This document shows, piece after piece, positions 7,601 through 64,000 of a DNA stretch of 64,000 bases. Origin of the DNA: Blasia pusilla. Lineage: Eukaryota. The number at the start of each line of letters is the position of its first letter. Position 1 is the stretch's first letter. The DNA is taken from the NCBI GenBank assembly GCA_050084515.1, contig CM114271.1:38936001-39000000 (forward strand), in the 5' to 3' direction. A program made the position numbers and the translations under genes. The notes beneath the pieces are model-generated. The model searched no databases. It saw nothing but the letters and a program-made list of their open reading frames with translations, and was not told where the DNA came from.

Positions 7601-8144
7601 CCACTAGCCAACTCTTATTGCCTTTCTCTCCCTACCATCGTCTGCCTCGCTGGTAGACGTCCTATAGCCAAGTGCTTTTCTTGATTGTTTCTTTCATTTC
7701 CAAGAGGGCAACCATACGCATTTTGATAATAAAATATGGTCCCTTCTAGAGATCCTCTCCTCTAGTGGTAGTGTTGCATTTCCCTTGACTACCTTGGGAA
7801 ATATCGGCAACCATTGAAATCGGTTAGCGCTTCAAAAAAAATTAAACAAAAATTTAAAAATAATCTCAAAGTTAAAAAGGTGCACAAGTAATATTTGCGT
7901 GATTTAATATGAAAATATCCTACAAAAATTTGATAATAAATTACTCCCCACCCCTCTCATAGGCTCATACATTGGTTTTCTTTTTTAAAATAAAATTACT
8001 TTGACATGTATCATAATATGTCTCAAAATTATTTTTATCATCCTAATTAGAGGTTGTATTAGGATTATTGAAATCATATTGAAACATGATATTATTAATA
8101 TTACATTAATCCAAATCATATAGAAATATGACATTACTAGTTAC

Positions 8145-15200: not shown

Positions 15201-15459
15201 ACGTTTGGTTGAGCTATATCACATGCGAATGTCATCCATGGTTTAGCACATTGCCTAAGTGGATTGTTGAGGCATTGACTTGGGACAAGAAGATGAGAGA
15301 TAGGCATCCATGAACTTCCTAAGACCTGATTCAAAAAGAGATTGTGAAGGCACACACAGTGGTACATGTTTTTTTTTTTTTAGATGTGGGGCATGATATG
15401 GGAGATCCAAGCACGTTGTTTATATTGAGGTATATAGGATTCTTGAGTTCTAACTAAAA

Positions 15460-16600
15460 TTGTGTCGTGACCCTCATTACCAAATGAATGCTAAGCAAAA
15501 CATGAGAACTCTAGTGGGCTCACGTTAGGATGGTTTGTGCATTGGAGAGGTCTCTTGAAGGAGACACGAGGTGTGAGACACAAAAAAGGTTGAGCATTTC
15601 ATAAATTTATGGTTGCGACTAGGAAATCTGAATTAAACGTGAACTAAGACTTGACAGGAGTCGAGTCTAGGAAGAGTGGCTGCCAAAAAGGTGAGAATCG
15701 GATTTGGAACATGACTAGTGTTTGGGGTTTTGACTATATTTTGGACCATAACTTTGAGTCATGAGACGCGTTTGGGACAAGTAAGGTAGAGGTGGAAAGC
15801 TTATGCAAAGTCAGTTCCAATGTATCAAAGATCTCAACAAACGCACAAGCAGAGGTTGAGAAACTGCCCAAAAATAATTGTGTAGGGAGTTGGATTGAGG
15901 GCCAAAAAGAGAGACCCGAGAGTATTTTCCCAAAAGATAGGGGGAGGGCGGAGAACCCCGAAAGTACTAGTAAGGAGGAAGGTCTCAAAGAGTGCTTGGG
16001 ACTCGAACCCCACATTGGGGCGGCGCGGGGCGAACTAAGGGCACAAAATGGATCGGGAGTTTGTCCTTGGGATTCGGAACCAGAACCAAAAGTCCAATAC
16101 ATTGGATTTTTAAGTCACTTTTGGATTCCAACCCAAAAATTATTTAAGTGGATCTCAGTTAGGGGCTCATGAGAGTTCCATTGGACAGTTGGGGCCGCCA
16201 GACATGCAACCATCATTTTAGGTGCCTCGACTATCCAGAAAGTCTATCCCAAGTCTCGGAAGACTTGTTTGTGTGGGGAAGTGAGGAACTAGGAAGGTTG
16301 AGCTTGATGAAGTACTGAGTTGAGAATTGGATAAGTTGAAAGACTGATTGACCCAAACCGGACTAACGTGAGTATGTTTGGGTGTAGATTAGCAATGAAA
16401 GTATGTCCTACTGAACTTACATTTCTACAACACTAGAAATTGACGTACAAGAAGAGTAGGTGCACGAAAAACTGAATCTTCTTCCTTGAGTAAGGTCATA
16501 ATGGAGACTTGGAAGGTTGAGGTAGATCTCGAGTTAATAGGAGGAGACAGATGTCGAGTTCGATGATTCTTGAGAGGATATATGAGTTTTTTTTGTCTTC
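15460..16600. mobile_element. Probable nested LTR-derived insertion between the MTase and RT of copy A
   Basis: Starts with LTR-like TGTCGTGACCC; no pol motifs inside; 16295-16430 resembles 30245-30385. No TSD found. Confidence 0.4.
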
Positions 16601-18483
16601 AACATGAGGGATATGGGTACTTTGAAGGATCTTGGTATATATATAGATTTGGCTAGTGATACATCAATCTTCCGTTGATCCTACAAGTACTTTGATATGG
16701 AGAGAGCCTTGATTCAGGGTAGTAGTTAAGACTTTTGAGAGGCGAGATTGGTAGAATTATTGCATGGAGAGTATGAATATGCCACAATCATGCTAGTGAA
16801 TAAGGATATGTATGGTAATTGGACATATAAGTGACTATGTGGAGATTATCGTCCTATCAACCGCCAGACGAGCTCGATGAACCAATACGCCATGCCTACT
16901 CTTTAAGAGAATTCTTATGTGATTGGGCATGCAAAGATCTTCATTACTTTAGATCTTTGTGTTGGCTATCTTCAACTTCATAGCAAGGGTGAAGACATGG
17001 AGTGCAAGGAAAAGATAAAATTTGGGGGATAAATAGGTTTGGGAGAGATTCTTTGTAGTAGTGTCAATTCTTACCAATTGGGTTGAAAAACATCCCTACA
17101 TAGTTCCATGGGGTCATGGATAGGATTTGAAGTATGTGGTTTGAAGTATGTAAGAAGTTACATTGATGATATTATCAGCTTCAATCCATAATTGAGAAGC
17201 ATGAGCGACACTTGGAGGAGATGTTTTGCCAATTGCAATTACATGGACCTGAAACTTCATCCACGCAAAAGCAGATCCTTTCAAGATCAGATTGAATACA
17301 CCCTCAAATATGCTACGCCCTATAGATGTAAGTCGAGTGTGAGCATTTCTATGATTAATGAACTTCTATCTTCAATATGTTAAGGGTTTCAGTGTGATCG
17401 CAAAATCTTTGACCTTGTTTACTAGACTTGTTTAAATGTGGTATTACTGTATTGGGAAGATGATCATGAGCAAATTTTTTGGATTACAAGGATAGGTTGA
17501 CTTCCTCGCCTATTTTACGGAGATGTATGAAGGATCATCCATTCCAATTACATATGGATTGGGGTATGTTGGGTTTAGAAGTTGTGCTTATTGAAAGAGA
17601 CAACAAGTAAAAAGAATTCATTGTGCCTCATGCAATTCCATAGAAAAATATTGTAGCAGGAGAGTGTTACCTAGGAAATGTGCAAAGGGTTGGATGTGAC
17701 ACTTGGAAGTCATCTACTTCCAAATGACCATAATTCCAATAACTAATTCCCAAGAACCAACTTTACAGGTTTGTTAGCAAACATCCAGTGAGAATATCGG
17801 CCCACTATTTTATAGAGGATTTTTTACTCCGGATTGACATTCAATTTTCCATATAGGGGCTTCCCGTAGAAATACCCTAAGCCAAGTGCACAACATTCTT
17901 TTCCCATGATTAAAAAAAAAAAACAAGCATTATGGACGTGAAGACTCAAGAAATGCTCGCCCGCCCACCCACAACTTGCCAGGGCCGACTTTGGGAACAT
18001 CCCACGACACCAAGTCCCTCCCATGTGGGGAGTTGCTTCGCTCGCGCTCAATATAGTGACCGGCCCTTAACGGTGACAACAAGGAAGAGCGAGGACAGAT
18101 CTCTATAAACGACAAAAGACGTTAACCTCAGAGGCTCAGATAAAGGCGGTCTGGTCTTGGAGGTCGGTCAAAGGAAAGTAGGAAAGTACACAACAGTCGA
18201 AAAGATTTACTAGTGTTTACTTCCACTTGTGCGTACGTGTAATTGACTACCCTCCTGTCGTCGCCGCCGCTACTGCCCGAAAATGGCGCTTGTCCTCCGG
18301 CTTTGGAGGTTTGGGTGCTGTTTCCGGCTTTTGTGGGCCACCACCTCAGATGTCGGGAGGAGCTGCTGGTGGTGGCTGTGAAAGAAGGAGCTTACCATAC
18401 TTAGCTGGACTATTTATTAGGGCTGTACTGACTTGTATTCTCGTTTTAGCGAAGCTAAGCGAACGCGTTTTAGTCGTTTTCGT

Positions 18484-19200
18484 TGTCCAGTTGGGGGGTG
18501 AGAGGATAGCCACTCACGATGCAGTGCGGGATATCATGTTCAATATTGCTCGGGAGAGTGGCTTCCATGTGCAGAGAGAGAGGCACTACTCCATGCGGGA
18601 TTCCCTCATTCGTGCCGATCTCTACATGACACGTGAGGCTGAGGTGGTGGTGGCGGACGTGGTAGTCACAGATCCTACGTGGGAGGCAGTGCGAGCCCAA
18701 GTGGTGGCCCAAGGGTGAATGCTACAAGGAGCGGCGGCGGCGGCGGCGGCGAAGAAGACACATATCTCTGATCGACTACACGAGGACACATCTTCATCCC
18801 CCGGCCATAGAGATGTATGGGGCTATGGGGGGAGAGGTTCGACTTCGTTCTTTACGGATGCGCCCATCATCTCCACTCGAGAAATGGGTTGTCCTTAGCT
18901 CTGCGATTCAGTATTGTAGGCGTGGTCTCCATAGCGTTAGCGTGCCCAGGCTAATGGGATTTTTGCGGCGGGCTCGGTATGGGGAGACGCCGGCGCTAGA
19001 GGCCCACTTAGTAGTAGTCATAGCTCTCTTGTTGTTGCTGATATTGTCTCTGCTTTGTTGGTGAGTTTAAAGTCGTTAGGGGGAATGCCCCCTTCTTCCT
19101 TTTCTGGTCTTGTTGTGGCCTTCAGGTTTTGACTCTTTGAGTCCCCCTCTTTTGTACTTCCGATGGGTTTTCCATCACTCGTTTTTATCGAAGTGCATCT
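18484..19200 (+). mobile_element. 3' end of a CRE-clade non-LTR retrotransposon (RLE endonuclease domain plus 3' UTR), copy 1
   Basis: GGERIATHDAVRD...RE...RADL...DVVVTDP...EMYGAMG RLE signature; near-identical to 35450-36155. Confidence 0.82.
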
Positions 19201-20249
19201 TTTTGTTTTTCTAATCAATTTTGTTATTGGTCAGGTTTGCTATTCACGGTTGCACCCACTTCTGTTATCATTTTAGTGATCTTCCAACTTTGTTAGTAGC
19301 CGTTAGATGCATTCGATAATATCGAATGCATCTATTCACCATAAGATGGACGGAAATCATCATTGTGTAGAAAAAGGATTCTCTACATCCAATAATTTAT
19401 TTTTCTAAAATAATTTATTTTTCTCAATCAAAATTGAGAATTCCAAAAAACTTAATTAAAATAAATAAATGTAGACGATGGGGAAATTTAGGAAGGAGAT
19501 TTAAGAAAAATTTAAGGAGACAAGAAAAAATTTATTTAAAAAAATTATTCATGAAAAAGAATTAAATAAATAAATTTTTATAGTTATATTCCATTCTCTC
19601 CTATGCTTAATAAAGAATAATATTAAAAGAATTCAAGTGTGAAAGGCATTACACATGGCAAGCACAAATAACTTGTGAAGAAGGAGGCTAACACAAATAA
19701 TAATAAAAGTTAAGGTTATGTTGACTCTTGTTTTGGTTTATATGATTATTAATTGGTAATCCAATATTTTTGTGTAAAACCTATTTTTGAGGAAAGTAAA
19801 ATAAAGCAATTAAAAAGATAATTTTCTTCATAATTTTAGTGTGAATTCCATGAAATGATTTGGTTTTTCTCCAAACCAAGATGGTCCAATTTCTACTTCA
19901 AAAATAAATAAATAAATAAAATTTTATGTTTTATGTTACTAATATGAAATATACTCTATATTCTTAATAGAAGATGTGCTTTTTCAACAAATTTTAATTT
20001 TGGAATATCACTTCTTCAAAGAATTTACAAAAAAATATTTGGATGAGAAAAATATATTTATAGAATGAAATATTATGAGAATTAGTATATTCTATTAACA
20101 AAAGATGCCCCTTGATGAGGGTGATTTCATTGCATGACTCATAATTTATTATAAGATTTCCAAACATATCTATTTTATGAGCAAGTGCACAGCGTTTCAA
20201 ATATTATTGGAAATTTCTCATACACTATGCATTTACAATAATATCTTGA

Positions 20250-32794: not shown

Positions 32795-33982
32795 CTACAC
32801 CTCCACAGAACAAGAAGCCCGCACTAATCCGCTGAAGTCTGATTCCGAATTGACAACCTCCCACTTGCCAACCCCTTCGACATCCAATCGGCGCTTATGA
32901 ACAGCAGACTTGTTTCGGTCTCCGGAGTCCGGAATGGTCATCAAAACCAAGCTGTCGCAGATGGCAGTGGCACAAATGGCAGTTGCGCCATCGAGTGGTA
33001 TGGCATCAACGACTGTCCAGAGGTTCTTCTCGCTGTCGTAACGCATGAGATTATGTTTTTGAATCGCATACAGATTGCCCTCCCACAGCGTGAAAGGGCC
33101 GGGGCTCACCCTCTCCATCCACATATCCTCAAGCCTGCTCCAGCGTCCGCTCACGGGATCATAAATCTCTGCACTGGAAACAAACTGCCCTTGATTATTG
33201 TTAGAATAGCCACTGATCACCAGCACCTTCCCGTCCAGAGCCACCACTCCACATTCGTCCCGCTCCTCGCTCATGGGAGGCAGTTCCTCCCACCGATCCT
33301 CGTCCACGAAGTAGGCTTCGGCAGAAGCCAGTGCATTCTTATTGTCATCGTGCCCTCCCGCCACAAAAACATTGTTACCCATGATTCCACATCCGAAGAA
33401 TGACCTTGCACTCGACATGTCGGTCCCGCGCTTCCACGACTGCGTGGAGAAGTTGAACACGTAGACCGTTCTCAGGGCCTCGTATGTGCTAGGATGCCAG
33501 CCTCCGAGCAGTACGAGCTTCCCATTGAGACCGACGCAGCGACAGAACACAGGGAGACCCTCGGGGAAATCGGGAATGGGAGGCAACCTCGCCCAGCCTT
33601 TCTGCTTCCAATCGTAGATGGTCAACCCGAACACAGGAGCTGAGGCGTGCTTCCCACCAGCAGATGGATCATTGAAATCCGGTTCAGGGAGCGCTTGCAC
33701 AATGCACAAAAGGTTCTGCGTCGCACCCACTCGCCGCCGTTCCTCGTAGAAATTCTGGCTGGTGACAATGTTATCCCACTTGCGGCAAACGCCTTGTAGC
33801 TGAGTGAACACCGTGTGGGAAACGCGCAGCAAGCACTCGAGGGCGATCTCTTCCGGCAGACCGGGGATCAGGTCTTGGATCAGAGTTTCCTCGCCGAGGT
33901 CTATCTCGTCCAGCAGATCCGTCTCCTCAAGCGTGTCGTAGTCCTCGTCCATCTCCAAATCCCATATCATATTCATCGCCAT
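32795..33982 (-). CDS. F-box/kelch-repeat protein (KFB/KMD/SKIP20-like subfamily), single exon, 395 aa
   Basis: Intact ORF with F-box LIPGLPEEIALECLLRV and kelch repeats (LVLLGGW, ARSFFGCG...VFVAGGHD, ERDECG...VISGY...AEIYDP...W). High-GC coding composition. Confidence 0.96.
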   Translation of the reverse strand: MAMNMIWDLEMDEDYDTLEETDLLDEIDLGEETLIQDLIPGLPEEIALECLLRVSHTVFTQLQGVCRKWDNIVTSQNFYEERRRVGATQNLLCIVQALPEPDFNDPSAGGKHASAPVFGLTIYDWKQKGWARLPPIPDFPEGLPVFCRCVGLNGKLVLLGGWHPSTYEALRTVYVFNFSTQSWKRGTDMSSARSFFGCGIMGNNVFVAGGHDDNKNALASAEAYFVDEDRWEELPPMSEERDECGVVALDGKVLVISGYSNNNQGQFVSSAEIYDPVSGRWSRLEDMWMERVSPGPFTLWEGNLYAIQKHNLMRYDSEKNLWTVVDAIPLDGATAICATAICDSLVLMTIPDSGDRNKSAVHKRRLDVEGVGKWEVVNSESDFSGLVRASCSVEV

Positions 33983-34917
33983 CTTGAAAACTCGTACCCT
34001 CCACCCGAAAAGAAACTCGCAAGTTCCAACGGAACCAGAAAACTTCCGGACGTTTCAAGCGCTTCGTCTCCGACTTCACGGCCCCTCACGACCGATTTCG
34101 ATCAGTTAACTCCCCCAACTTTCAGGATCGCTCCACAGCAAAACTCGATCAAATTCACTCCCGCACTACCTGCAACCACCGCACCCGAATCACCCACAAT
34201 CCACCGTCTCTCTCGCGAACACGAACGGATCGACCACCACACCCGCGACTATATCCCCTCCTCGCTTTTTTTCTTTTCCTTCGCTCTGCACACCACACTT
34301 CCTTCTCCGGTATTCAAGATTCCAATTCGCGGAGTGCAGGCGAATGCGTGTGATGGCGCACGGTACTATAGTGCACAGAGCTCGCTTTGCAGCTTTCGGA
34401 CCAACTGGGGAGGGAACCAGGTCAACAAGAAGTTTCTAGTCCTGCCTTGCCTGGCAGCAGCCTGAGAGTTAGCGTGTGAAACAAGAGGCCGGATTCGCAC
34501 AGTCCAATAAGCTGGCGGGCGCAGATAGATTAATTACCGGCAGCTGCTGTGGGTTTTATGGTTTTATCCCCCTTTCCTGCCCCAGCGGTCAGGAAGAAAA
34601 CGATGAGATAAAATACAGTGGAATCTATCCACCTTGCTCGCCGGCGACCTCATCCGCCCCGACAGGTGTCGCTTATAACGGTGATAGATCCTCGTGCTGA
34701 CTAGGACGATTGGCCCCAGCACCACGCGTAATCCGGCTGTTGCAGGAGAGGCATCGACACGTTGAAGTATCAGCTCTGGAGCGAGCGAGTTGAAATAAAT
34801 AGATCAGGACGAACAGTGGCATTGGCAACTGCAGCGTAGGATGATAGGATCGATCTATCCCACTTCTTTACTTTCCGCCGATATCACTCGTAACGCGCCA
34901 GTCATCCTCTCGTCCTC

Positions 34918-36155
34918 TTGCGGGCCCGCCGCGTCCGGCCAGTCAGCCAGGTGAGGACGCCCGTGAGGCGCCGGTCGGACGTACGGCCGATGTCTAGGGT
35001 TTCGATCGTTACGAGAACGTCTGCGGGTGCCTCGGACTCCCTCGACGCTGAAGCACCAGATTATTATAGCGGTAACGGCAACTGCGCCATCCGTTTCCTT
35101 ACTAACATCCGCATTGTTACTCGGCTGCTCGGGAAAGCTCGAGTATCCTCTCTCCGTTATCTTTTCTCCGCTTTGCTTTCATCTCTTCTCATGCATTCCA
35201 ACGGTGATTTCAAGTTACTTCCGAGTTCCAACGGCTTCACTTTAATTTGCTTGCGTGCGTCACATGTATCGTATCCAGACGCCTTTGTTAATGATTCCGT
35301 TCCTCGCGCCTCGTTGGAAAACCTCGCTTCCACATCCACAGCGATGCGGTTCCGCTTGGGCTTCCCCCAACCATCGGTGGTTGGTTCGACACACTGCGAG
35401 TGTCGCCGGAGCCTGGATCCACTTGGTGTGCATTTGGCACGCTGTCGATTGGGGTGAGAGGATAGCCACTCACGATGCGGTCGCGGGATATCATGTTCGA
35501 GTATTGCTCGGGAGAGTGGCTTCCATGTGCGAGAGAGAGAGGCACTACTCCATGCGGGATTCCCTCATTCGTGCCCGATCTCTACATGACACGTGGGAGG
35601 TGGTTGTGGCGGACGTGGCGATCCTGAGATCCTACGCGGAGGCGTCACGAGCCCAAGTGGTGGCCCAAGGGCGAATACTACAAGGAGCGGCGGCGGCGGC
35701 GGCGGCGAAGAAGACACATATCTCTGATCGACTACACGAGGGACACATCTTCATCCCCCGGCCATAGAGATGTATGGGGCTATGGGGGAGAGGTTCGACT
35801 TCGTTCTTACGGATTTGCGCCCATCATCTCCACTCGAGAAATGGGTTGTCCTTAGCTCTGCGATTCAGTATTGTAGGCGGCGGGTCTCCATAGCGTTGCA
35901 GCGTGCCCAGGCTAATGGGATTTTTGCGGCGGGCTCGGTGGGAGACGCCGGCGCTAGAGGCCCACTTAGTAGTAGTCATAGCTCTCTTGTTGTTGCTGAT
36001 ATTGTCTCTGCTGTTGGTGAGTTTCGTCGTTAGGGGGAATGCCCCCTTCTTCCTTTTCTGGTCTTGTTGTGGCCTTCAAGTTTTGACTCTTTGAGTCCCC
36101 CTCTTTTGTACTTCCGATGGGTTTTCCATCACTCGTTTTTATCGAAGTGCATCTT
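34918..36155 (+). mobile_element. CRE-clade non-LTR retrotransposon 3' portion (CCHC knuckle plus RLE), copy 2
   Basis: MRFRLG...CEC...D.LG.H...C knuckle, then ERIATHDAV, and RRRVSIALQRAQANGI. Ends at the same point as copy 1 (ATCGAAGTGCATCT). Frameshifted; 5' boundary approximate. Confidence 0.82.
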
Positions 36156-43569: not shown

Positions 43570-44420
43570 TTTATGGTTTAGGGTTTAGGGCCTAGGATTT
43601 AGGGTTTATAGCTTAGGGTTTAGGGTTTTTGGCTTACGTTGTAGGGTTTAGGGTTTTCGGCTTAGGGTTTAGGGTTTATTGCTTAGGTTCTAGGATTAAG
43701 GGTGTTTGGCTTAGGATTTATGGCTTTTTGCTTAGGGTTTAGAGTTTTTGGCCTAGGGGCTAGGGTTTAGGGTTTTTGGCCTAGTGTTTAGGGTTTATTG
43801 CTTAGGTTTGAGGGGTTAGGATTTTTGGCTTAGGGTTTTTGGCTAAGGGTCTAGGCTTTTTGTCTTAGGGGTTAGGATTTAGGGTTTTGGGTTTATTGCT
43901 CAGGTTCTAGGGTTTAGGGTATTTGGCTTAGGGTTTTGGGTTTTTTCGCTTAGGGCTTAGGGTTTTGGTTTACGGGTTAGGGTATAGGGTTGTTTGCCTA
44001 GGGTTTAGGTTTTTCCGCTTTAGGATTAGGGCTTAGATTTTTGTCTTAGGGATTAAGGTTTAGGGTTTTTTGCCTAGGGTTTAGGGTTCATTTCTTAGGA
44101 GTTAGGATTTTCGGAATTTTGGCGTAGGATGTAGGGTTTATTGATTAGATTCTAGGGTTTAGAGTTTTGGCTTAGGGTTTAAGGGTTTTTGTTGAGGGGT
44201 TAAGGTTTAGAGTTTTTGGCCTTGCGTTTAGAGTTTTTGGCTTAGGGGTTTATACCTTAAGGTTAGGGCTTTTGGCTTAGGGTTTGTGGTTTATTTTTTC
44301 TTGTCTAGGCTTCAAGAAAGGGTTGTAGAATTTTTTGGCTAGGGCTTAGTGTTTAGGTTGTAGGCTTTAGGCTTACTAATCCCTTAGGGCTTACGGTTTG
44401 AAGGATGTAGGGTTTAAGAT
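43570..44420 (+). repeat. Interstitial degenerate telomere-like (TTTAGGG/CTTAGGG) array
   Basis: Dozens of TTTAGGG, CTTAGGG and TTTTTGG variants over about 850 bp. Confidence 0.92.
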
Positions 44421-47771: not shown

Positions 47772-48521
47772 CTAAGTTCCTTTCAAGAACCTTGTGGCGT
47801 GTAAGACAGCTCGTGATGTTGGTAATGAATACGCCAACATGGTGATCCCCCAGTCTTTAAACACCAACTTTGGATTGACGTAGTGAACAATTCCCTCTTC
47901 GATATTTAGACATCCATCGTTCTCTGTAAGTTGCACTGGTAAAAGCATTGATTCCGTATGACCAATCATGGGAATTGCAACTTGTACGTCGGTGGAGGTA
48001 TTGCAGGCTGAGTGCTTCTTCTTCCTAATATCCATGGTATCATTGTATTTTTTTGTAATCAGATATATGGGATATTTTGCAAATATTCCCAACATATCTT
48101 GTGGCCCTCTTCCATCCAGGTGGGTAGCTGGTTGGTAGTATGACTCATCAACTATTACGCACATCCACGATTGCCGTTGGTTGTCAAAGAAGGACAAAGG
48201 TTGGATCTCATGTGAATCAAAGCTTTCGGCAACACGCTCTGAACCAATAAGAAGCTCTGATCCCGTTGAATCTTTTAAGAAAACTTTCTTTGAATATTGT
48301 GTGGGGCAATGAGGCTCTCCTTCCACATCCTTGCATCCAACACTTGTATTAGTTGTTGTAACTCCATTACGAGGCCATGTGATGAATGCTCCAATGAAAT
48401 CGGACAGAAGTGCTCCATTGTAAGTGCTTGTTGAACTTCCGAAGACTTCCTCCAGAGACATGTACAAGGACTCCTTACCAAGTGGTATCATGTGGACTAT
48501 TCTCTCGGAATTGGTGTCCAT
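47772..48521 (-). pseudogene. Transposon-associated ORF upstream of the Sola-like transposase; Tnp1/En-Spm-associated-like motif
   Basis: VHMIPLG...SLEEV...LSDFIGAFITWP motif, with a weaker second copy in the same ORF. Confidence 0.35.
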
Positions 48522-48689
48522 GATTCTAGCTCTTCCAACAGATATGGATGATCAATCTTATAGATATCCTACATCACCGATGCAAAATTCCATTGCATCA
48601 ATGTGAAATCTGCGCCATAACATCAAAGTGGCAATTAATTGTTAGCCATACACCGAATGGGAAGTGGGAAAAAATTATAATCATCTTAT

Positions 48690-50348: not shown

Positions 50349-51109
50349 TGAAGTCAGTTTGAGGTTATCGATCCGTGCTCTTTCGTCAATCTCAGCCATT
50401 GGTTTTCATAACTGATTGAGGAGTGGCTTGGATGATTTTGACACATGCAATTTTGATCTAATGCGCGATATCTTCTCTTGACACGGATCCTGAATCTGTG
50501 ACATCCAAATTTGAATTTTGAAATGGATGCGAGTATTAGGTTAAGTAACGTTGGTGTGCTGACATGGATCTAATGTGGACCGCTAGTCGAACATCGAGTC
50601 TGTCATGAATGACAAGTATAAGTAGCAACATTTTCCCAAATCAATTTTTTGCTATCAATCTCTTTGCACTGGAGGTGCACAACGCTTGCTCTGCAAGTGA
50701 GGCAGAATGTGAGCGCCCAATTGTTGATCTTTTGTAGGTCGACGCGGAAATACAATCGTGAGGTTCTTTTTTCTTCTCCTTCCGAATGCAACACTTGTGT
50801 TGTTGTCGATCTGGTCTACGGTGGAGTTCAATAGGAGTTCATTATGATGTCAATTGCGGCAGGATAGAAAATGCCTCTTGGAGGGTTTCAGATACTATGA
50901 CTTCTGAGCCTAAAGGAAGATCACTTGTCAAGGTTTAGGGTAGAGAACGACATCTTTGCCAAGTTTTTTCCAATGTGTATTCGGCGCGCAATGCGCCAAA
51001 TGCCTTGGCATTGTATCTTGATATTCGTAAAGGGAATACAAGGATGTTCTAACATTCCTATTGCTCAAGTCATATAACTGATTTGAAAATCCAATGCGAA
51101 CTGTCGCAC

Positions 51110-51900
51110 ATGAGAATCCCATACAAGCCCCGGACCACCTTCTCTGTAGGCATGTGACGAGGGAAAACTCACAAATGTGGGTAGTGCCATCCTAGGCTGG
51201 CCCACACGGTTCACCATTGCCATGGGTGACCGATCAATAATCCTCACCACTTGAGAAAGTCACCCAGTATCCAAGATACTATCCACGGTAAGACAAGGAT
51301 CCCGCTGCACTGCATCATATGCTCGACGTAGAACCTCCCTAGGCAACAAGTTTGTCCACCACAAGCGTGGACGATGTGCACGCGAGCCAACTCATGGCAC
51401 GCATCCAACAACAGCTGGTCCAATCCAAGACCGCACCTCATGAACACTCGCCATCATCCGGGTCCGAGTGTCACCCAACAATGGAACATTCTCCAGAATG
51501 TAAGTTGGAGCACGTGCCTGATGAACTTGAAGATGTCGTAACACCCGTAACATCTCCCAAAACAATCGAGACCTAGGGTCGTGTAATCCCTCACCACGAC
51601 CTGCATGTGTATGACCCTGACATGGCCATCCATCAATCATCAAATCCACAGGATCAACCCTCTCAAGGTCCTACGCCCCCAACAATGCAATGTGTGACGG
51701 CAAAGCACGTTGGTACCCACGAATAGCTGATGGTGGCAACAACTCAGGATATCTCCGCATCAACTGACCAATATGTTGGGATGAGACTCTCTGGGCCGTC
51801 TCATCTTGCTCCACATACACGTATCTCCGACAGAATAATTTGCAGACCAAACCGGTGCTAATCCCACCAAAGAGATCTAACACGCAAATGCCCTCGGATC
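51110..51900 (-). pseudogene. DNMT3-like C5-cytosine methyltransferase domain (copy B), truncated before motifs IX-X
   Basis: Motif I VLDLFGGISTG (starts 51883); YVYVE; motif IV DLMIDGWPCQG (~51646-51614); SRLFWEMLRVL; motif VI ILENV (51499-51485); motif VIII GSRAHRPRLWWTNLLP (~51388-51341). Confidence 0.92.
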
Positions 51901-54900
51901 TTTGCCATACAATGGGTGTAGTATCCAAAGGGGATAACCTAACTAGACCAGAAGTAGGAGTCCGTCGTGGGGCCTCCTCTTTCTCGTGAGGTATAACAAC
52001 CTCACACCAAGCCTCCTGCACTAGGCGATCAGCCTCCTGCCGTAGTGCACCGCTTGAACTCCAAAGTGGCACATCTAACAATGAGGATGCCACGGCTGAA
52101 AAAATAGGGACCTCCTCTACCTCCTCATGCGCAGGAGAATCCATAGCAGAAACATTACCCTCCAAAAAGTCTCCTGGCCAAGTGACTACTCCACTAAAAC
52201 TAGCCACATATGCTAACACTGTTGGGGAAGACCCTCTTGGTCGAGCCCCATAAATAAATCTCACAAGAACTTGGCTCATACGTCCATCCCCAGACTGCCA
52301 ACCAGGTCTATAAGGTCTTTGTCTCATCCGAAGAATCCATCTGAAAACCCATCGGCTACAATCGCTGCTCCTCCAACTAGTACATCATACGACTCGGTGA
52401 TGTGACTACCGCATGAATACTCCCAACCGGGAGCTATGAGTCGCATGATTTGGTCTCAACTGTACAGAAAACTTCTCTCGTGTCATGAATTGAGACCTAT
52501 CATTGGCTCCTCCAAGTGATGTTTGAATCTGGAATGGGCAAGGCTCAAGCTCTGACCTCCGAATACCCAAACCAATACATGCCGCCTTTTCCAACATCAA
52601 AGGTTGGGCACCATAGTCTAACAAGACTCTATCTGGTCTATACACATCTGTAGGACTCACCAATCGGAAGATCCCACTCGGTTGTCCAACATACATACAC
52701 CAGTGTAAGCCTCTCACGATCAATGGTTGGCCGGGCTAGTAATGCATCCATCTTTTCTTGCCGCCAAGTAGCATTGGTACTCAATGCTACACTGACATAG
52801 AGGGTCGCTCCACCGCAACACCCTCATCCACCTCAACACGTGTAGGAGTAACACCCCACGTTCACACAACGTGGTCGCTAGCTGAAATCTGAGGAGCTAA
52901 GTCAACTCCTAAAGCCATCGCTCCGTGGCGAAAATAATGGGGATCCCAACACGAAGTTGCCATCCGCACTTGGATCTTTGCATCCGTGTCTACTACGCGC
53001 GCGATGTGGAGGGTTTCGGCTCAATAGGTGCGTATGAACCATGGATGGAGTCCTAAGCACCTCAGACAACAAGAATGACCGGGAAGCCTAGCCCGCCTCC
53101 CGGCCTCACCCCTATGTGGGTCCAACTCGATAGCACCACGTGGCTCGGCGCTCGAGTGGCTCCTCTAGAATAGGCGGTGATGCCTCAACTTTTGTCCGCA
53201 CTCGCCATATAAGAGAGATCATCCCTCCATAAGAGGTGGAAGTCCTGCTCCCGAACCTGATCTATCTTGGTTATTAGCCATAGTAGCCAACCTGCTCCAA
53301 TGCTCAAGGGACCATAGGCGACTCTGTCATAGTGGTAGGGGTAGTCACCGTAGGCTCTCCAACCACTGGTCCACCTCTACCACCCCTACCACCTCTACCA
53401 CCTTGGCCTCTCGGAGCTACTCCACCACGGCCGCGGCCTGATCTCAACTCTGGATGAAGATCAAAGCAACGCTCTCGAAGATGACCTGGTCTCCCGCAAT
53501 GATCACACTGAGTTGGGGCGGACTGAGGCCCATCCTCTTGGGGACAAAACTTCCTAACATGATCACCTTCACATGTCCAACATGACTGTCCTTGCTGCGG
53601 GGCAGCAAATGAAGGCAATGATCTATGCGTAAGTGTCCCTCTAGGACCTGACTGAGGTCGTGTGTACCCCCCACGACTCCCACTACTACTACCACCACCA
53701 CTACTATGAGACTTTGAGGTGGGCTGCTGAACACAAGAAGTAGTAGTTGTATCCCTACTGAATGCGGATATCACCACTCTCTCCTTCACCATGTTAAGCT
53801 CAATCTTCTCAGATAGAGCAAACACATGGGTCAATGTGGGTGAATCATCACTCATAAGAGTAGCATCACGTACCCTAGACCATACCAAAACTGGACCACC
53901 ATGGATGATAGACACATAGCCGGGATACCATTATTGTCTCCATGCCTCAATCTCAGCAACATGGTCCTTTCTAAACTCATGGTAATCATCCATGGGTGGT
54001 CCTTCCAAGTGCTGAAACAACCCCTTCAAAGCCAAGAAGGGTGTAAACAACGTGGCGTTCCTCAACATCTGCATATCACACCACGTATCAAACTCCTGCA
54101 TGAAGTCCTCCAACTCAATGGTGCCCACTGCACCCGAGTATCTTCGTGGGTCCTTCATGGCCCCATATCCACCGTCCATGTCCCAAATCAATGGAGCTGC
54201 AACACTCGATAACAACGTAGAAGACTCGGTGTTTGGAACACCCTCGTCCTCCTCTTCATCAACCATCGGAAGTGGAAAAGGTAGCCGATACCTAAATCCA
54301 CTCCCTGTGAAACCACCACTGTCCGCACCACGGTCCCCAACAGACCACCCGCGACTCGTGATGACCAACGCCGATGCCGCACCACCACCAAATAACCAAG
54401 TGACGTCGATGTCGCTATACTATTCTAGCTCTACTAGCTATGGGTGTAGGCAACCCAACTTGTCATCACCACAAGAAGCCTCCCACGGTCTACTGGTCAT
54501 CACTCTAGCCTCACTATCGGTAGCACACAGGAGTAACACTACTCTGGAAATCAGCGTCAACCCTAACAATGGGCGCGCAAGCAAGAAGCAACGATGGAGG
54601 GGATCCAAACACAGGAAGTCCAACGACAACCCTCCAATCGCAAATGGAAATCAAGGTAACACAATCCACCAAACGTGGTGCCCCCTGAATCCTCAAAACC
54701 CACCACACAATTCTAACGCAATAGCTACTCCGCCGCGGATCGATGACGTGCTAGTCGAACTTGTAGCACCTGAAAATATCACCTGCATGGAGAGGCTACA
54801 CCGTACTATGCGCTAGAGGTACATCAACCAAAAACCTGAGATGCATAAAGTGCTTAACACATCTCCGAACAACACCAAATGAGCTACAATAGTGTGTACA

Positions 54901-56117
54901 CTGGCATAGTTAAGAACTCAGCAGTTAAGTGTCCTCCAGGCAGAATAGCCCAAAGATGGGTGACCAGTTATGCAACACTCAAATCACAAATCGTGCAAAA
55001 ATTGCCTCGCGACCAAGCAAGCAATCAAGTTGCTTGCTTGCTTCTTGCTCCTTACTCCGCCTCTCACGCCCACTCGCCCCGAGCTACCACGAGTTGCCTC
55101 GAAGCCTCGAAACGCCGAGACATGCACCTATCGCCACGCTTCGCCATGCTTCACCATGCTTTGCTATGGAGAGAGGCCCAACCAGGGCGCCCCCAACGGG
55201 ATAGGCGTCTCCAACAATCAACGAGTCACCAACCAACCAGCCCCTCCGATCCGCTGTCCACAAAATTTCAATCAGCAATTACTTCACAAATCCGTGACCG
55301 AAATCAAATCTGTTTCAACCAAAATTCAATTGACCACCATAACTATCTCTCCACCAAAAATCAGCTACAACCGAGCTCTGTACTCTGAGCTAAAAATCAG
55401 ACAAACTTGTTGTCCATACACCTCAAGAATCGCAAATCCGCCACCCTTCCGCCAAGTTTCATGCACGCAGAAATCCGCAACGCTCCACACACTCAAGCAG
55501 ATAGCTTCACATGAGATCACAATACAAGTAGCAACAGGAACCTCTCACTCAATCTGGATGAACTTCAACAGAGCTTCCGCACTCCAAGCTCTCCACATCA
55601 GAAAACCGTCGAACACGAACCAGAATCTTCAATCCTTGATAACTTCCAACTCCCTTGACAAAATCCATCGATCTAAATCGCGTTGGAAAGCTCTCAGCAA
55701 GGTGCTTCTTTCCCAACCAACCACGCACCAGATTCACACCTCCAACATAGGCCATAAGCCACGAACATCCACGGTTGAGTACACAATCAGCCCTAACAAG
55801 ATCCTACTGATCTACAATCGAAGCTACCATCGATCTACTCCAATTCTTTGAGTGAAATCCGTGAAAGACCTTCTATCATAAAACACGTATAGAATCACAT
55901 ATAATCGAGCCAAATCCACTCCACGATGGGAGAATCTAGGTCGAAGCTTGCGGAAAACACCATTGCCAAGGGCTCTACTCACTACCAAGGCTAACTCCCA
56001 ACGTAACAGGCTCAACTCAAAGAATTGACTGTTCTTTGAGTGCATCTTATATCCTCCAACCTAAGAGCGGGCCCTACTAGGAAAGTCACCCCCAACTGAG
56101 TAACCCCAACCCTATGT
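51110..56117 (-). mobile_element. 3'-truncated Ty3/Gypsy retrotransposon: leader - gag - protease - C5 DNA methyltransferase (copy B)
   Basis: Gag (MKDPRRYSG...LEDFMQEFDTWC, 53931-54368); two CCHC-type knuckles CWTCEGDHVRKFC and CDHCGRPGHLRERC (53304-53915); protease VLLDYGAQPLML (52406-52723) collinear with copy A; MTase at 51110-51900. Right boundary approximate; no LTR ends identified. Confidence 0.85.
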
Positions 56118-59100
56118 ATGAAACCGCATCTCTACCAAGCCACTACGGTCCTACCTAAGGAATGGCCTCTACTAGCACACTATACTCTACGACATAATCC
56201 GTATGGTCATGAAAATTGCTATGAGAAGCTCATTTCGGATAAGGAATTCTCCGTCGATGATGCACAGATTCTCCTCGACATTCTGCTCGAGGAGAAGATG
56301 TATTTGAAGAAGGATCTCTCCTTTGGCACGCAAGCCAAGTTCGGTGTTCCTCTTGATGAATTTTGTAGAACTTTGCGAGATTTAATGCTATTGCAGAGGG
56401 CCAAATGCCCAATGACTGACTTTCTTGTATCTACCCACAAGGAAGTCATTAGTAGTTTTGATACAACCTCACCCGGATTTTTCGGGATTGTTGTAATATT
56501 TTGACGAGGAGTCTCGTCTCAATGCAAGCGAAAGATTACTAGTGTTCTTTGCAAAGATCGAAATACTCGGGAATCTTATAGTTGCATGCCAGAGAGCCTC
56601 CAATCTCTGGTTTAGAGTAATTCCTTGTACAGTGAGATTTCCAATGACGGATCCAAAGAGACAAAGGATTCGGAGTGGAGAATGTCTCATGGTTTTTATA
56701 GCGGTATTTGTCAATGGTTTTGATGAGTCCACTCTGGACGAACAACTCGTTACTGTAAACAGAGTACTTGGCGGAAAATTTCTTCCCATCTCCCTCAACG
56801 ACACAAGAGATATGATCAACGAGGAGTATAGATTCCTTCCGACCATCGGAGAGAACGAGTTTTGAATGGGTGAACTCGTGGAGATTTTCTTCGGCTTGTC
56901 AAAGGTTGGAGCGCGGAAGAATGTCATTGTGGTAAATCCAGGTTGCAGCGTACTGCGGATCTAGTGGTGAGTTTCTCTTTCGGAACCTAAGTTCCCATCA
57001 TGATTACATGCATTCAACTTAAGTTCTTATTCGAAGACATGTACTAACTCCCCTGAGCTGGTATCGTTACAGGTTTCGGGAATCAATTTCCAAGCATTCT
57101 GTTCGCAAGTGGATGGGGCAACATTATCGGAATTTTTCCTGAAATTTGATCAATTCTTCAAGATCGATGCAAACCGTAGTCTTCTAAGGACTACCCTTGT
57201 AGTCAAGTCCAATCCAGACCGGGAGGTGGCACCTTCTGAAGGCAGGCAAATGCCTGGAATTGCAAAGGGGCAAAGGACTCGGACATGGAAGTGGAGTGAG
57301 AAGATGATGACGAATCAAAATTAAGCTTCGGGGATTTGTGCCTTAAATCATGCTAGAAGTTTGTTTCTCTTCGCGTTGCTATTCGATTCAAGCAGGCCCA
57401 TTACTGATTTTGGTTGGTTTATGGCTCAGGACAATGGAGTCGCGGAGAGGGATGGGGGTGAGGGATCGGCTCCCCCAACTTTTGAAAGGGTGATATCGCC
57501 TGATATGTTGAACCCTCAAATTTTGATAGGGGAGATAGTGCTCTAGCTACTCCTGATTTGGCAAGATATTTCGCCAGAACTATCCCCACACAACTGGGAG
57601 AAAATATCATAAGTTCAATTTAAGAAGCTCGTTATGAAAAAACTTTATGCTTTTGAGTGGGACGATGACTCTAACATATGGAATTCTAATCTAAGTATCT
57701 ATTTGCGAAGGAGTCATCGTCAATTAGTGGAAAATCACTTGGACTATCGGCGCTCACTCCCGAGGGAGAGAAGGATGACGAAGTGCTGGAGAGCAGATCC
57801 AAGCAAAAACCATCGTCAAAGATACCAATTGCGGTGAGAAATTTACAAGATCCTCCTAATGCATGAAAATCCTTCCCACAATTAGTTTTAAATTAATAAT
57901 TTTTTTCTCATTACGTTGAGTGTCCATAGGGAGAAAATGAAAGGGAGGGACTGCGTGAGACGGGGAAGCAGATTTCGACGTCATCGGGCTTTCCTACTAC
58001 GGTGAGCAACCAAATTATTTTTTCCTATTCTGATTTCAGTTTCCCAGCTTCTTCTTGCACTGATGTAGAACTTAAGTTCTCATTATATGGAGCATTTGCC
58101 ACTACACAGGGAGAAGAGGAGAGAGAGGGACTGCTTGGGACGGAAAAGCAGACTCCACCATCATCAGAATCTTCTTTTGAGATAAGCAACCCAATTCATA
58201 TTTCATATTTTATTTTCAGTTTTCCTGCCTCCTCTTGCATTGATGTAGAACTTAAGTTCTCATTATGTCGAACATTTTTCCACTATACAGGGAGATGAGG
58301 AGAGCAAGGGAGTGGAAAAGCAGACTCCACATGGAGAAAAGGGGATTGAGGGACTCGAGGGTACGAAAAAGCTCACTGCAACATTACCGGCTTCTCCGAA
58401 TCAAATGAGCAACTAAAGTAGCGATTAACTCATCTAAAGTTTTCATTGTATTTAGGGTCTCCACACTTTGAATTCAGAAAAGAAGACCTTATATTGTGGT
58501 TTCATGCAGGAGTTACACGAGGGACCGTGTAGTAGGTCGAGGTCTGAGTGTTCAGAGGTTGGTGACTCGCAACTTAGAAAAGTTGTTAACACTATCCTCG
58601 GGATTGATTTAGCCACTGCACTCAAAATATCGGATTTTGATGACTCTAGACGCAATTTAACAATCAAATGTGTAAATACACACAAAAACAATACTTCTTA
58701 AGTTCCACCTCGAGCTCCAGTGTCTACAAAGCATGCGGCTTCGGCAAGAAGTACATTGCCTAAGAAAGTTGCTAGGCCACAATATGAAGGGAGAATGAAC
58801 ACTGACATATCCGGGACACGTAGAGTCATTGCGTCGAAGTCTTCTCTGGGAAATGTGGACCGAGAAGAACACACGAAACGGATCCCATGTAGAACAGTAT
58901 CAATGATAGTTGGAGACTCTAGCGGTTCGGACACTTCTCCGAAAATTATAGCCGTGAAACCTTCAAAGAACAATAAGCATAATAACCCATCCCCAACACA
59001 TGGAACATCTCTAGATAGTACTAGCCCAGGGACCAACATTGACCGGGGGACCTTGTCCATGGTAAGACTCAATCGCCATCTTTACTATCATAGGTTTCAC

Positions 59101-60290
59101 ACAGACTTTGATCATGCCGAAAGAGAGTTGAGATTACTACGAGACGGTCGTTCCATAAACTCGAGCATGGAGTATAGAACCTCTTTGGAAACCATTAGGG
59201 AAATGAGTGCGGAAATTAGATCTTTGGATTTTAGCACCTGGGGGAGCTTGAAGTGACAATCATTTTCATTCATATCTTAATCGGAACTTTAGTTCCCATT
59301 CATTCCCCTGTGACTACCTTCTTTCAATTGTATTATGAAGTGGAAGGGTTTTGCCCTTGCATCCCTTCTGCACACGAGAGATGCAGTAGTTAATGTAATG
59401 TTACCAGTACCAGAGTTGAGGACTTCTATTTTCATGTTGTGTTTCATTTTCTCCTACAACCTTGCATCGCCTTTGTATTTCTGTATGATTCTTTGGATTT
59501 TGATGAAAGAAATGTCTGATGCGAACTCGACCCAGATCTGGTAAAATCATGCTTCTTTTTACCGCACGAGATCCTACTTTTCTGCCCTGCTTATCGAAAC
59601 TTTGGGAACTTGAAAAGTATTAGCATCAGACCAGGGTGTGGAGATGTTCTCCACGCAGCCAGTGATTACTTTGCTTTGGGCTATGGATATGTAAGAATGA
59701 AGATAGTCTCGCCAAAATGGAGGCTGCAATTTTGGATCACTTACAAGAGAGGAATCTTCCCCCGGTTGGGTTCACTTTGGTTTGTGCAAATGACAGTCCG
59801 CATGGAGATCGAGCAACTCCATTCAAACTACTGAACTATTTTGATGAGGCAACAAGACGTTGGCTGGATTTGGACAGCCAGCAACTGATTTTTTTTTTGA
59901 CGTGGTCGGAAACGAGAACCACCACGATAGTGTACAAAATTTTATGAAGATGCCGAAATAGAAGGCATCATCGTAAAAAGATAGTTTTCTCATGACAGCG
60001 TTGACACATTATGTCAAATTGTTGTAGCTCAGCATATCCAACGACCACTTCCAAACTCCGTGGAAGTTCATCCGACATTGTGATTTGCCCTCCTATTATA
60101 GGAAGGTAATGTGAATTTCTACCCATTGTGAACCAGTCTTAACCAATCTTACACTTGTAAATTTGGGATTTTTTTCCTAATATTGAAGTGTTTCGCACAG
60201 CCTGGTGACTACCAACGCTACTATGAACCAAAGGAGCATGCTGCAAGTCAAAATGTTGGACACCGATCTTCAGGCATAAAGGTAAGCACT
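56118..60290 (+). pseudogene. Decayed multi-exon ORF fragments of unknown function, likely transposon accessory genes
   Basis: Run of plus-strand ORF pieces (56118-56865, 57109-57837, 58468-59256) with GT/AG-like junctions; no family recognised. Confidence 0.35.
57920..58410 (+). repeat. ~181-bp tandem triplication resembling exon-plus-intron units
   Basis: (C/T)AG|GGAGA...AAGCAGA...G(T/A)(G/T)AGCAAC...TGATGTAGAACTTAAGTTCTCATTAT; units start ~57927, 58108 and 58289. Confidence 0.75.
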
Positions 60291-62629: not shown

Positions 62630-64000
62630 CTATCCTCTGGATCAATTCGAAGTGTAGTTCCAATAAGCTTGCTCCTAAGATCCCTTCGTCTTGAAAAATT
62701 GTAGAATCGGAACTTTGGTTCTGATTGTACCCCAAAGTGCCTCGCCCGCTGAAAGTCATTTGGAGCCAAACTTGGACTCAGTTCAATTGGATCGTGAGAT
62801 CCAATTGCAGCCGCAGAACGCGCCCATAAAGGGAAATCCCTATCCTCGATTGGAACTGTAGTTCCAAACAGCCTGCTCCTTGCATCCCAATAGGTCGGCA
62901 ACAAGTGCAGAAGCAGAACCTTAGTTCTGATTGTGTCCCAAACTACCGCGCCCGCTAAAAGTCATTTGGAGCCAAACTTGGACTAGTCCAATTGGATCCT
63001 AAGATCCAATTCCAGCGGCAGAAGGCATCTGGTAAAGGAAAATCCCCATCCTCGATTGGAAATGTTGTTCCGAATCGTTTGCTCCTCACATTCCAATAGG
63101 TCGGCAACAAATGTAGAATCAAAACCTTAGTTGTGATTGTGTCCCAGACTGCCGCGCCCGCTGAAGGTCATTTGGAGCCAAACTAAGTCGCAGTCCAATT
63201 GGATCCTAAGATCCAATTTCGGCCGCGGAAGGCGTCTGGTAAAGGGAAATCCCCATCCTCGATTGGAAATGTAGTTTCGAATGGTCTGCTCCTCACATCC
63301 CAATAGGTTGACAACAAGTGTAGAATCAGAACCTTAGTTCTGATTATATCCTAGACTACCGCGCTCATTGAAGGTCATTTGGAGCCAAACTAAGCCGGAG
63401 TCCAATTGGATCCTAAGATCCAATTCTGGCCGCAGAAGGCGTCCGGTAAAGGAAAATCCCCATCCTCGATTGGAACTGTAGTTCCGAATCTACTTATCCT
63501 TGCAACCCAATGGGCCAACAACGAGTGTAGAATCAGAACCTTAGTTTTGATTGTGTCCCAGACTGCCGCGCCCGCTGAATGTCATTTGGAGCCAAACTAA
63601 GTCGCAGTCCAATTGGATCCTAAGATCCAATTCCGGCCGCAAAAGGCGTCCGGTAAAGGAAAATCCCTATCCTTGATTGGAACTCTAGTTCCGAATGGCC
63701 TGCTCCTTATCTCCCAATAGGTCGGTGGACATTGGCAAATCAGAATGTTAGTTCTGATTGTCTCTCAGACTGCCGCGCCTGCTGAAGGTTATTTGGAGCC
63801 AAACTTAGTCGGAGTCCAATTGGATCCTACGATCCAATTTCGGCCGCAAAAGGCGTTCGGTAAAGGAAAATCCCCATCCTCGATTGGAACAGTAGTTTCA
63901 AATTGCTTGCTCCTTGTATCCCAATAGATCGGCAACAAGTGTAGAATCAGAATCTTAGTTTCAATTGTGTCCAAGACTGCCGCGCCCGCTGAAGGTTATT
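62630..64000. repeat. 206-207 bp tandem repeat array (over 6 copies, runs off the window)
   Basis: (C/T)ATTTGGAGCC anchors at 62757, 62963, 63169, 63376, 63583 and 63790; each unit holds an AATTGGATCCTAAGATCCAATT-type palindrome. Confidence 0.95.

Follow-up and report, generated by a model that had tools for sequence, protein, structure and literature searches.

Among the retroelements described as carrying a cytosine methyltransferase (MTase), the closest to the one considered here is KnitGypsy-Dnmt3 of the charophyte alga Klebsormidium nitens, a Gypsy-type element with a DNMT3-like MTase reported in 2018 (de Mendoza et al., PMC5890265). SymbioDIRS-Dnmt3 and SymbioLINE-Dnmt of Symbiodinium also carry a cytosine MTase, but on a DIRS backbone with a tyrosine recombinase or on a LINE backbone (PMC5890265). 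The EpiLTRs of Cymbomonas and Euglena are retroelements of this general kind too, and differ in being chromovirus-like, in having an added adenine MTase, and in a DNMT that is sister to DNMT4 and not to DNMT3 (bioRxiv 10.64898/2026.05.21.726589). Here, we followed up a stretch of 64,000 nucleotides from Blasia pusilla (NCBI GenBank assembly GCA_050084515.1, contig CM114271.1, positions 38,936,001 to 39,000,000 of the forward strand), hereafter the window, in which a preliminary description had noted a Ty3/gypsy retrotransposon with its own DNMT3-like MTase. We call this locus copy B. As far as identity and anatomy are concerned, and leaving the mechanism aside, we consider it very probable that copy B is a decayed 5' remnant of a Ty3/gypsy family belonging to the Gypsy-DNMT3 lineage of K. 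nitens. What appears to be new, from sequence comparison, is the presence of land-plant members (liverwort and moss) in a lineage known from one alga.

Coding regions of copy B

The coding span of copy B runs from 54266 to 51098 on the minus strand, as determined from the list of open reading frames (ORFs) and from direct translation (Table 1). A gag with two zinc knuckles, a protease (PR) and a C5-MTase with motifs I, IV, VI and VIII had been listed earlier as lying on one strand, and we found all of these parts on the minus strand. The MTase motifs follow one another in the order I, IV, VI, VIII, which is non-permuted, while motifs IX and X are seen only in relatives. GWPCQ, ENV and FGGISTG are all present in copy B although its frame is broken by stops. 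A piece of 92 amino acids (aa; 51392-51670) matched PF00145 with 40.3 bits against a cut-off of 22 (E = 3.3e-10), which agrees with the earlier assignment of the domain.

When the Marchantia protein P0001 was searched against the window with tblastn, it gave one single-frame high-scoring pair from 53146 to 51098 (713 columns, 56% identity, E = 0) and matched two further segments in gag, where its alignment to copy B starts at the ATG at 54179. The PF00145 and tblastn matches lie well outside what chance would give. The protease proper of copy B (52735-52406) aligns to the DSG protease of the Marchantia relatives. Pfam searches of the flanking ORFs (47772-48551, 54964-55851, 56100-56504, 56469-56960, and 58702-59256) returned no families.

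Relatives of copy B and kinship with the Klebsormidium elements

The MTase-bearing piece of copy B has 22 homologues at E <= 1e-3, with best identities of 62-66%: 15 from Marchantia polymorpha, two from Calypogeia fissa, two from Sphagnum, and three unnamed. The nearest named relatives being bryophyte proteins, the earlier suggestion that the DNA comes from a land-plant genome is well founded. A search with the Marchantia MTase domain returned 61 proteins. Of the 2363 cluster representatives that an exhaustive search with P0013 (HMMER) yielded at E <= 1e-3, 793 have E <= 1e-10 and 230 have E <= 1e-30. Names could be recovered for 20 of the HMMER matches, among them four strains of Closterium and K. 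nitens (GAQ93235.1).

The relatives fall into two architectures. In type 1, the order is gag(CCHC)-PR-DNMT, followed by reverse transcriptase (RT), RNase H (RH) and integrase (INT), in some cases with a terminal PHD finger. The whole type 1 order stands in one ORF in the metagenome proteins P0147 and P0123, and type 1 is also found in Closterium (P0275 and P0157) and in K. nitens (P0191, which is GAQ93235.1). Marchantia P0008 has DNMT, RVT_1 and RT_RNaseH in this order, and relatives of copy B match Asp_protease_2 in Pfam. The MTase is linked to gag or protease in other copies (P0001, P0008, and the metagenome locus L056).

A scan of metagenome contigs gave 279 candidate stretches, of which 85 were confirmed and 80 kept as loci. 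Copy B is 72-78% identical to many of them at the DNA level, from gag to its truncation point (blastn). Direct repeats flank the DNMT in four of the 22 long loci (L011, L029, L036, and L051); these long terminal repeats (LTRs) measure 169-342 bp, are 86-94% identical and lie 7.1-8.7 kb apart, and both of the pairs that were aligned (L029 and L051) have TG...CA ends. A fifth locus, L003, has a weaker repeat pair (74.5%). Most of the LTR-bounded or long relatives are also degraded. L056 is essentially intact: its ORF1 (976-5085, 1369 aa) contains Asp_protease_2 and PF00145, and its ORF2 (5086-8229, 1047 aa), separated by one in-frame TAG, contains RVT_1, RT_RNaseH, Integrase_H2C2, rve and PHD. 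L057 has the same layout. No direct LTRs were found in L056 or L057, whose contigs probably end inside the element. The LTR-bounded relatives, together with the ranking against solved structures given below, bear out the preliminary description of a Ty3/gypsy-type family with a non-permuted, DNMT3-like C5-MTase.

The likeness to the K. nitens elements is close. KnitGypsy-Dnmt3 has a non-permuted DNMT3-like MTase inside a Gypsy-type polyprotein, and is intronless and multi-copy, as in the family described here. GAQ93235.1 carries a CCHC knuckle at residues 297-313, a protease at 598-691 and a DNMT from residue 833, and it aligns to Marchantia P0001 as one collinear block spanning protease, linker and DNMT (29% identity over 569 aa, E = 1e-54). 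Against copy B itself the identity is 35% over 279 aa (E = 5e-37). Because the CCHC-PR-DNMT order and the collinearity are shared with GAQ93235.1, we assign the family to the same lineage as the K. nitens elements; copy B is by this comparison a land-plant member of the streptophyte Gypsy-DNMT3 lineage of KnitGypsy-Dnmt3, and not the product of a new capture. The hosts differ, KnitGypsy-Dnmt3 living in a charophyte alga and copy B in a land plant. The novelty implied at the outset was overstated, as GAQ93235.1 has the same order and is collinear, and elements of this kind were published in 2018.

We built trees of the MTase domain with FastTree and midpoint rooting; the larger one keeps 229 of 273 proteins (those with at least 260 domain positions). 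P0013, two Sphagnum proteins and copy B form one group (support 0.85), which then joins Marchantia (0.96). A streptophyte-type clade of 67 tips, with Closterium and K. nitens, has a support of 0.88. At the base of the bryophyte clade (0.998) lies copy A, a second DNMT-bearing element located at 12271-17634 on the plus strand of the window, which is far more diverged, is frameshifted and has the order PR-DNMT-RT-RH. Copies A and B share no DNA similarity.

Marchantia, liverworts and mosses receive no mention in the text of PMC5890265, nor does the PHD finger. "Streptophytes" in general are named in PMC12344493 and in bioRxiv 10.64898/2026.05.21.726589. We found no paper that names DNMT-bearing elements of liverworts, mosses or Closterium, a search that did not extend to the supplements of the texts on streptophytes; none are named in the passages seen of PMC12344493, PMC11982613, PMC6453930 and 10.1101/363937, and no literature was found for the Marchantia genes Mp4g09160, Mp6g11220, Mp8g17980, and Mp8g15430. 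The distribution of the family may already be known to specialists.

The second architecture, type 2, has the order RT-RH-DNMT-INT-PHD. It was found in many metagenome proteins (the P0040-P0130 set) and in two named chlorophytes, Haematococcus lacustris (P0097) and Monoraphidium neglectum (P0098); our literature search found no publication on such elements. The DNMT domains of types 1 and 2 are homologous (35-42% identity, E = 1e-40 to 1e-65), and the integrase-PHD tail is common to both; in type 2, the DNMT is placed between RNase H and integrase and not between protease and RT. The type 2 DNMTs form a separate clade with a support of 0.95 in a 60-tip tree but of only 0.24 in the 229-tip tree.

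In both architectures, a PHD finger is found at the C-terminus of the integrase (residues 990-1034 of L056 ORF2; also P0040, P0046, P0061, and P0123). A chromodomain is reported to serve in the targeting of chromoviruses, which are other gypsy elements (10.64898/2026.05.21.726589), and the PHD finger may read histone marks and so steer integration. We also noted a different retroelement-like protein of 2311 aa from a metagenome, P0285, with RVT_1, PHD, PCIF1_WW, PF00145 and RNase_H in this order; at 90% identity it clusters with P0252, a protein with its MTase in the streptophyte-type clade.

Nature of the methyltransferase domain

We compared the MTase of the family with solved structures. 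A profile of nine members against the PDB ranked 29 DNMT3A/B/C sequences at the top (E = 5e-18 to 3e-15, 58-68 bits), followed by M.HaeIII (2.5e-8), tobacco DRM (2e-7), Arabidopsis DRM2 (3e-4) and DNMT2 (1.6e-3); DNMT1 and CMT were absent from the matches of this profile at E <= 1. The Calypogeia protein P0011 alone gave DNMT3A at 8e-11, DRM at 4e-7 and HaeIII/HhaI at about 1e-3, and its Atlas model had a TM score of 0.75 to DNMT3A clusters. "DNMT3-like" in this text denotes such a score ranking and not a phylogenetic position, our trees being midpoint-rooted and containing no host DNMT3, DRM, MET1 or CMT. Host DNMT3 was not among the three word-indexed search results, nor among the best 150 of the 2363 HMMER matches. 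Mosses are known to have a plant DNMT3 (PMC6453930).

The catalytic domain is closest to host DNMT3A/B/C among solved structures, and it resembles host DNMT3 in its motif VIII (AHRxR..W) and motif X (RRQ.LG). Unlike plant DRM, it has its motifs I-X in non-permuted order. It also differs from host DNMT3. PWWP and ADD domains are absent, and a retroviral-type protease and RT lie on either side of the domain; motif IV reads GWPCQ where DNMT3A chains have GSPCN, and the target-recognition region, from motif VIII to motif IX, comprises about 90 residues against about 64 in DNMT3A.

Over the nine divergent members, motifs I, IV, VI, VIII, IX and X are conserved, and the columns of the catalytic residues (G..G, PC(Q), ENV and R) do not vary in their alignment (A1, mean identity 38%). 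For the pair L056 and L057, dN/dS was 0.135 in the DNMT, 0.16 in the protease and about 0.03 in RT/RH/INT, values that come from a single pair in a sister lineage with a dS of about 1.3, near saturation. By this estimate, the family DNMT is under purifying selection, as is KnitGypsy-Dnmt3, for which a Ka/Ks below 0.2 was reported (PMC5890265).

Repeat abundance and transcription in the source organism

We compared four runs from the source organism, one of DNA and three of RNA-seq, with positions 50600-55000 of the window at a likeness of at least 88%. The depth of the DNA run, summed over contigs and not equivalent to copy number, was 4-75 up to 51040 and 1.1e4-9.9e4 over 51041-55000 (75,398 pieces). 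By these depths the family is massively repeated in the source organism.

The three RNA runs gave 1063, 772 and 1303 reads on the same interval, of which only 10, 10 and 8 are at least 99% alike; the RNA reads therefore come from paralogues. First mates fell on the plus strand about 20-50 times more often than on the minus strand (for example, 50 versus 0-2 per bin). Assuming a usual stranded library, the RNA is the sense strand of the element. The reads cannot be assigned to single copies. Where copy B has the stop TGA at 51262, the reads have CGA in 39 of 39, 44 of 44 and 69 of 69 cases, and where it has the stop TAG at 52738, all reads of every run have CAG. At 51829/51852 the reads continue into sequence for the four residues that copy B lacks, and at 51099, 27, 39 and 43 reads continue into sequence whose translation corresponds to the motif IX region. 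At the places where copy B is broken, the family members transcribed in the source organism are thus intact.

Decay and truncation of copy B

The PR-DNMT frame of copy B contains 10 in-frame stops in 683 codons. Gag and protease lie in different frames, with a frameshift upstream of 53146. Compared with P0001, gag matches aa 1-95 and 208-365 and lacks aa 96-207 (tblastn), and loose ends of RNA reads are found at 53895, at this deletion. The MTase domain retains 288 of 366 positions: four residues are lost after motif I, and motifs IX-X are gone. Homology to every relative ends at 51098-51113 (tblastn and blastn). The only RT and RNase H matches in the window are those of copy A (16592-17634), and neither a second LTR nor another internal repeat of copy B was found within the window.

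Judged from its sequence, copy B is a dead, 3'-truncated 5' fragment, inert and predicted to be incapable of methylating anything. The proposal in the preliminary description that it might methylate its own cDNA or remodel host methylation is ruled out for this copy by the stops and by the loss of motifs IX-X, RT, RNase H and integrase. The catalytic cysteine, said to be intact, is indeed present in GWPCQ; the point is moot, as the frame has 10 stops and the domain is truncated.

We looked at the 40 best-supported differences between the window and the family, a count that does not include 602 others. In 30 of these 40, the window has T or A where the family has C or G. Their contexts, which are approximate because neighbouring bases were read from the decayed copy B, are 13 CHG, 11 CHH and 6 CG, while background cytosines are 13% CHG, 72% CHH and 15% CG. 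Such CHG-enriched changes fit a silenced plant repeat whose methylated cytosines were deaminated. Most of the decay of copy B seems to be due to C-to-T transitions of the sort that methylated plant repeats typically undergo, with the 3' two-thirds apparently lost afterwards.

Long terminal repeat, hairpin and leader

Upstream of the leader we recognized a 5' LTR, beyond the span first described. The interval 56040-55842 is 72-75% identical to the 5' and 3' LTRs of L029, L036 and L051 (blastn), and it is the 3' half of the copy B LTR that can be aligned to those of relatives. The LTR ends were set by eye against the alignment of the L051 and L029 LTRs with their TG...CA termini.

The LTR contains a hairpin with arms of 10 nt, and a 10-nt motif follows the LTR directly, at the position of a primer-binding site (PBS). 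In sequence this motif exactly repeats the hairpin's 5' arm, and the 3' arm is accordingly its complement. Hairpin and motif occur together in 13 loci in addition to copy B, with a spacing of 141-165 nt (usually 154), and the terminal pair of the hairpin varies across loci (G-C, G-U or A-U). The 3' arm could thus pair with the motif at the PBS position. Such a pairing resembles the self-priming of the fission-yeast element Tf1. The pattern of an initiator-tRNA (tRNA-iMet) PBS had two matches in the window at no more than two mismatches, neither of them near copy B, which is below the number expected by chance. Neither this hairpin/PBS motif nor the junction stop described below was met in sections 9 and 11 of PMC5890265 or in term searches of its text, neither having been searched for there as a term.

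The leader is part of the repeat: over 54422-55000 the depth of the DNA run is 2.4e4-7.7e4, and RNA reads are present. It could not be aligned to the metagenome relatives, none of the loci having a blastn match in 55750-54500.

Junction stop between MTase and RT

Among the 44 rows of the alignment that include motif X, 18 have their first stop after this motif at a shared junction. Twelve of the 18 belong to the lineage closest to copy B and have TAG or TAA followed by CAACC and then C or T; in lineages b and c (three each), all six have TAG followed by a perfect CARYYA. The other 26 rows comprise 23 family copies with earlier stops or frameshifts and three distant, weak matches outside the family (L071-L073). 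In L001, L011, L031, L060, L056, and L057, the in-frame ORF that comes next encodes RT. The Marchantia proteins of the ORF1 type (1248-1333 aa) end shortly past the MTase. UAG-CARYYA is the type I leaky-stop, or readthrough, signal of tobamoviruses (PMC5382211), which suggests programmed stop-codon readthrough as the route by which pol would be expressed.

Proposed role of the MTase and alternative explanations

As the MTase lies upstream of the UAG-CARYYA stop, it is predicted to be made at the stoichiometry of Gag and in large excess over RT. In the mechanism that we propose, the MTase would be made with every Gag-PR molecule, and RT and integrase only by occasional readthrough of the stop codon. 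The MTase would probably be taken up into the particle, with the protease then setting it free. Its most likely substrate would be the newly made cDNA of the element or its new insertion, a step that we put forward tentatively and hold to be short of probable. De Mendoza et al. proposed such a role at the cDNA or insertion for DNMT-bearing elements (PMC5890265). Taken as a whole, we would envisage an ancient Gypsy lineage of Klebsormidium, Zygnematophyceae, liverworts and mosses, still transcribed in an extant land plant, that packages a DNMT3-type enzyme at the level of Gag and writes 5-methylcytosine on its own cDNA or insertion; this full scenario is possible, and we consider it rather doubtful.

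Several points weigh against our reading of the locus. The limits stated above for the summed depth, the strand and assignment of RNA reads, the transition count, the single dN/dS pair and the use of "DNMT3-like" all belong here. Pfam matched only one of the five pieces of copy B, those of gag and protease being below threshold. RT, RNase H, integrase and a 3' LTR of copy B were not found in the window, so that the element class rests on the relatives. No tRNA-type PBS was identified, nor, with the 3' end of copy B missing, a polypurine tract or target-site duplication. The link to K. nitens consists of one protein, GAQ93235.1, which is not proven to be a published KnitGypsy-Dnmt3 copy, and KnitGypsy-Dnmt3 was drawn with DIRS-like repeats (PMC5890265, Fig. 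4c legend), unlike the simple TG...CA LTR pairs of the relatives described here.

That copy B has neither RT nor integrase nor a second LTR makes the linkage within the locus weak on its own, and one could suppose that a host DNMT3 gene or pseudogene happens to lie beside unrelated gag and protease debris, or that copy B was domesticated and serves the host as a functional gene. We attach almost no probability to either version: protease and MTase stand in one frame whose homology to single-ORF relatives is unbroken, the LTR-bounded relatives carry the same arrangement, the span from the LTR to the truncation is repeated at a summed depth above 1e4 between flanks at 4-75, and the PR-DNMT frame has its 10 stops in 683 codons. 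It is also improbable, if less extremely so, that bryophyte elements captured a DNMT3 independently and that their likeness to K. nitens reflects convergence on the same host gene. Retroelements have captured DNMTs repeatedly (PMC5890265; bioRxiv 10.64898/2026.05.21.726589), and the type 2 architecture of chlorophyte and metagenome elements implies that the module has moved at least once; the K. nitens protein, however, has the same CCHC-PR-DNMT order in one stretch collinear with Marchantia (E = 1e-54), Closterium proteins have this order as well, and bryophytes, Closterium and K. nitens fall together in the 67-tip DNMT clade (0.88).

A different question is what the enzyme does. The MTase could be a pseudo-enzyme, or its product could be m5C in RNA; it could also work in trans, with host chromatin or competing repeats as its targets, for example in self-limiting silencing. 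The catalytic activity of any family member is so far a prediction, one LINE-borne DNMT of Symbiodinium failed to methylate DNA in yeast in a paper that lists several alternative roles (PMC5890265), and the target-recognition region is longer than that of DNMT3A (about 90 versus about 64 residues). Against this stand the conservation of motifs I, IV (PCQ), VI (ENV), VIII, IX and X over nine divergent members, the dN/dS of 0.135, and the fact that the closest solved relatives are the DNA enzymes DNMT3A/B and not DNMT2. We regard these alternative roles as unlikely, yet deserving of more weight than the two explanations of origin.

Coordinates and other features of the window

The features of copy B are listed in Table 1, together with the parts of copy A and the junction stops of relatives.

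Table 1. Positions of features of copy B, of copy A, and of the junction stops in related loci.
Feature	Position	Strand	Basis or remark
5' LTR, ~362 bp	~55853..56214	-	outside the span of the preliminary description; start 56214 approximate
Conserved LTR hairpin, 10-nt arms and 5-nt loop	56016..56040	-	pattern scan; same hairpin in many related loci
10-nt motif at PBS position, right after the LTR	55843..55852	-	pattern scan
Leader (5' untranslated region)	54267..55842	-	part of the repeat by read depth
gag	53304..54266	-	translation; start ATG 54266 or 54179, end ~53304
In-frame stop in gag	53933-53931	-	translation
Internal gag deletion, ~220 bp	53895-53861	-	252 nt in L051 versus 34 in the window
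Two gag CCHC-type knuckles	53582-53466	-	one CX2CX3HX4C, one canonical CX2CX4HX4C
Pre-protease region and retropepsin-type protease	52406..53146	-	alignment with relatives
Stops in pre-protease/protease stretch	six within 52406..53146, a seventh at 52387 before the MTase domain	-	
1-bp deletion in protease region	52702	-	RNA reads insert G behind 52702 (24/29, 17/20, 22/26)
Protease active site DYG (DSG in relatives)	52618-52610	-	alignment
DNMT3-like C5-MTase domain, motifs I, IV, VI, VIII	51098..51949	-	PF00145 and alignment
MTase motif I, VLDLFGGISTG	51883-51851	-	translation
MTase motif IV, GWPCQ	51631-51617	-	translation
MTase motif VI, ENV	51493-51485	-	translation
MTase motif VIII, AHRPRLWWTNLLP	51379-51341	-	translation
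Stops in MTase domain	51673, 51394, 51262	-	
Truncation point of copy B	51098..51099	-	homology and repeat both end here
Copy A, protease	12271-12832	+	
Copy A, MTase pieces	14155-15243	+	
Copy A, RT and RNase H	16592-17634	+	
Junction stop sites in relatives	L056 5083-5091; L057 4661-4669		also L031, L055, L060, L061 and 12 lineage-a loci

We noted four further features of the window. Two direct repeats of about 719 bp with 94% identity lie 17 kb apart on the plus strand (18495-19201 and 35451-36155); they may be the LTRs, or two solo LTRs, of another element. An uninterrupted ORF of 419 aa lies in a GC-rich island (0.52-0.55) at 32795-34054 on the minus strand, and by eye its product is probably a plant F-box/Kelch-repeat-like protein encoded by a host gene. 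A tandem array with a period of about 205 bp and 77-83% identity between units occupies 62642-64000 on the plus strand and runs off the end of the window, and a weaker tandem array is found at 43572-44399 on the same strand.

Implications

The function of retrotransposon-encoded DNMTs has been open since 2018, and their known hosts, Symbiodinium and Klebsormidium, are hard to manipulate. The lineage described here is found in bryophytes and includes many of the annotated "hypothetical proteins" of Marchantia polymorpha. With the lineage present in a model liverwort, the question moves to plants for which methylomes, CRISPR and transformation are available. The placement of the MTase before a putative leaky stop, with RT and integrase after it, predicts an excess of the enzyme over RT that constrains the possible mechanisms. 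If the packaged enzyme does write on the cDNA or insertion of its own element, land plants would have an epigenetic mark authored by a transposon, perhaps together with Tf1-like self-priming and PHD-guided integration.

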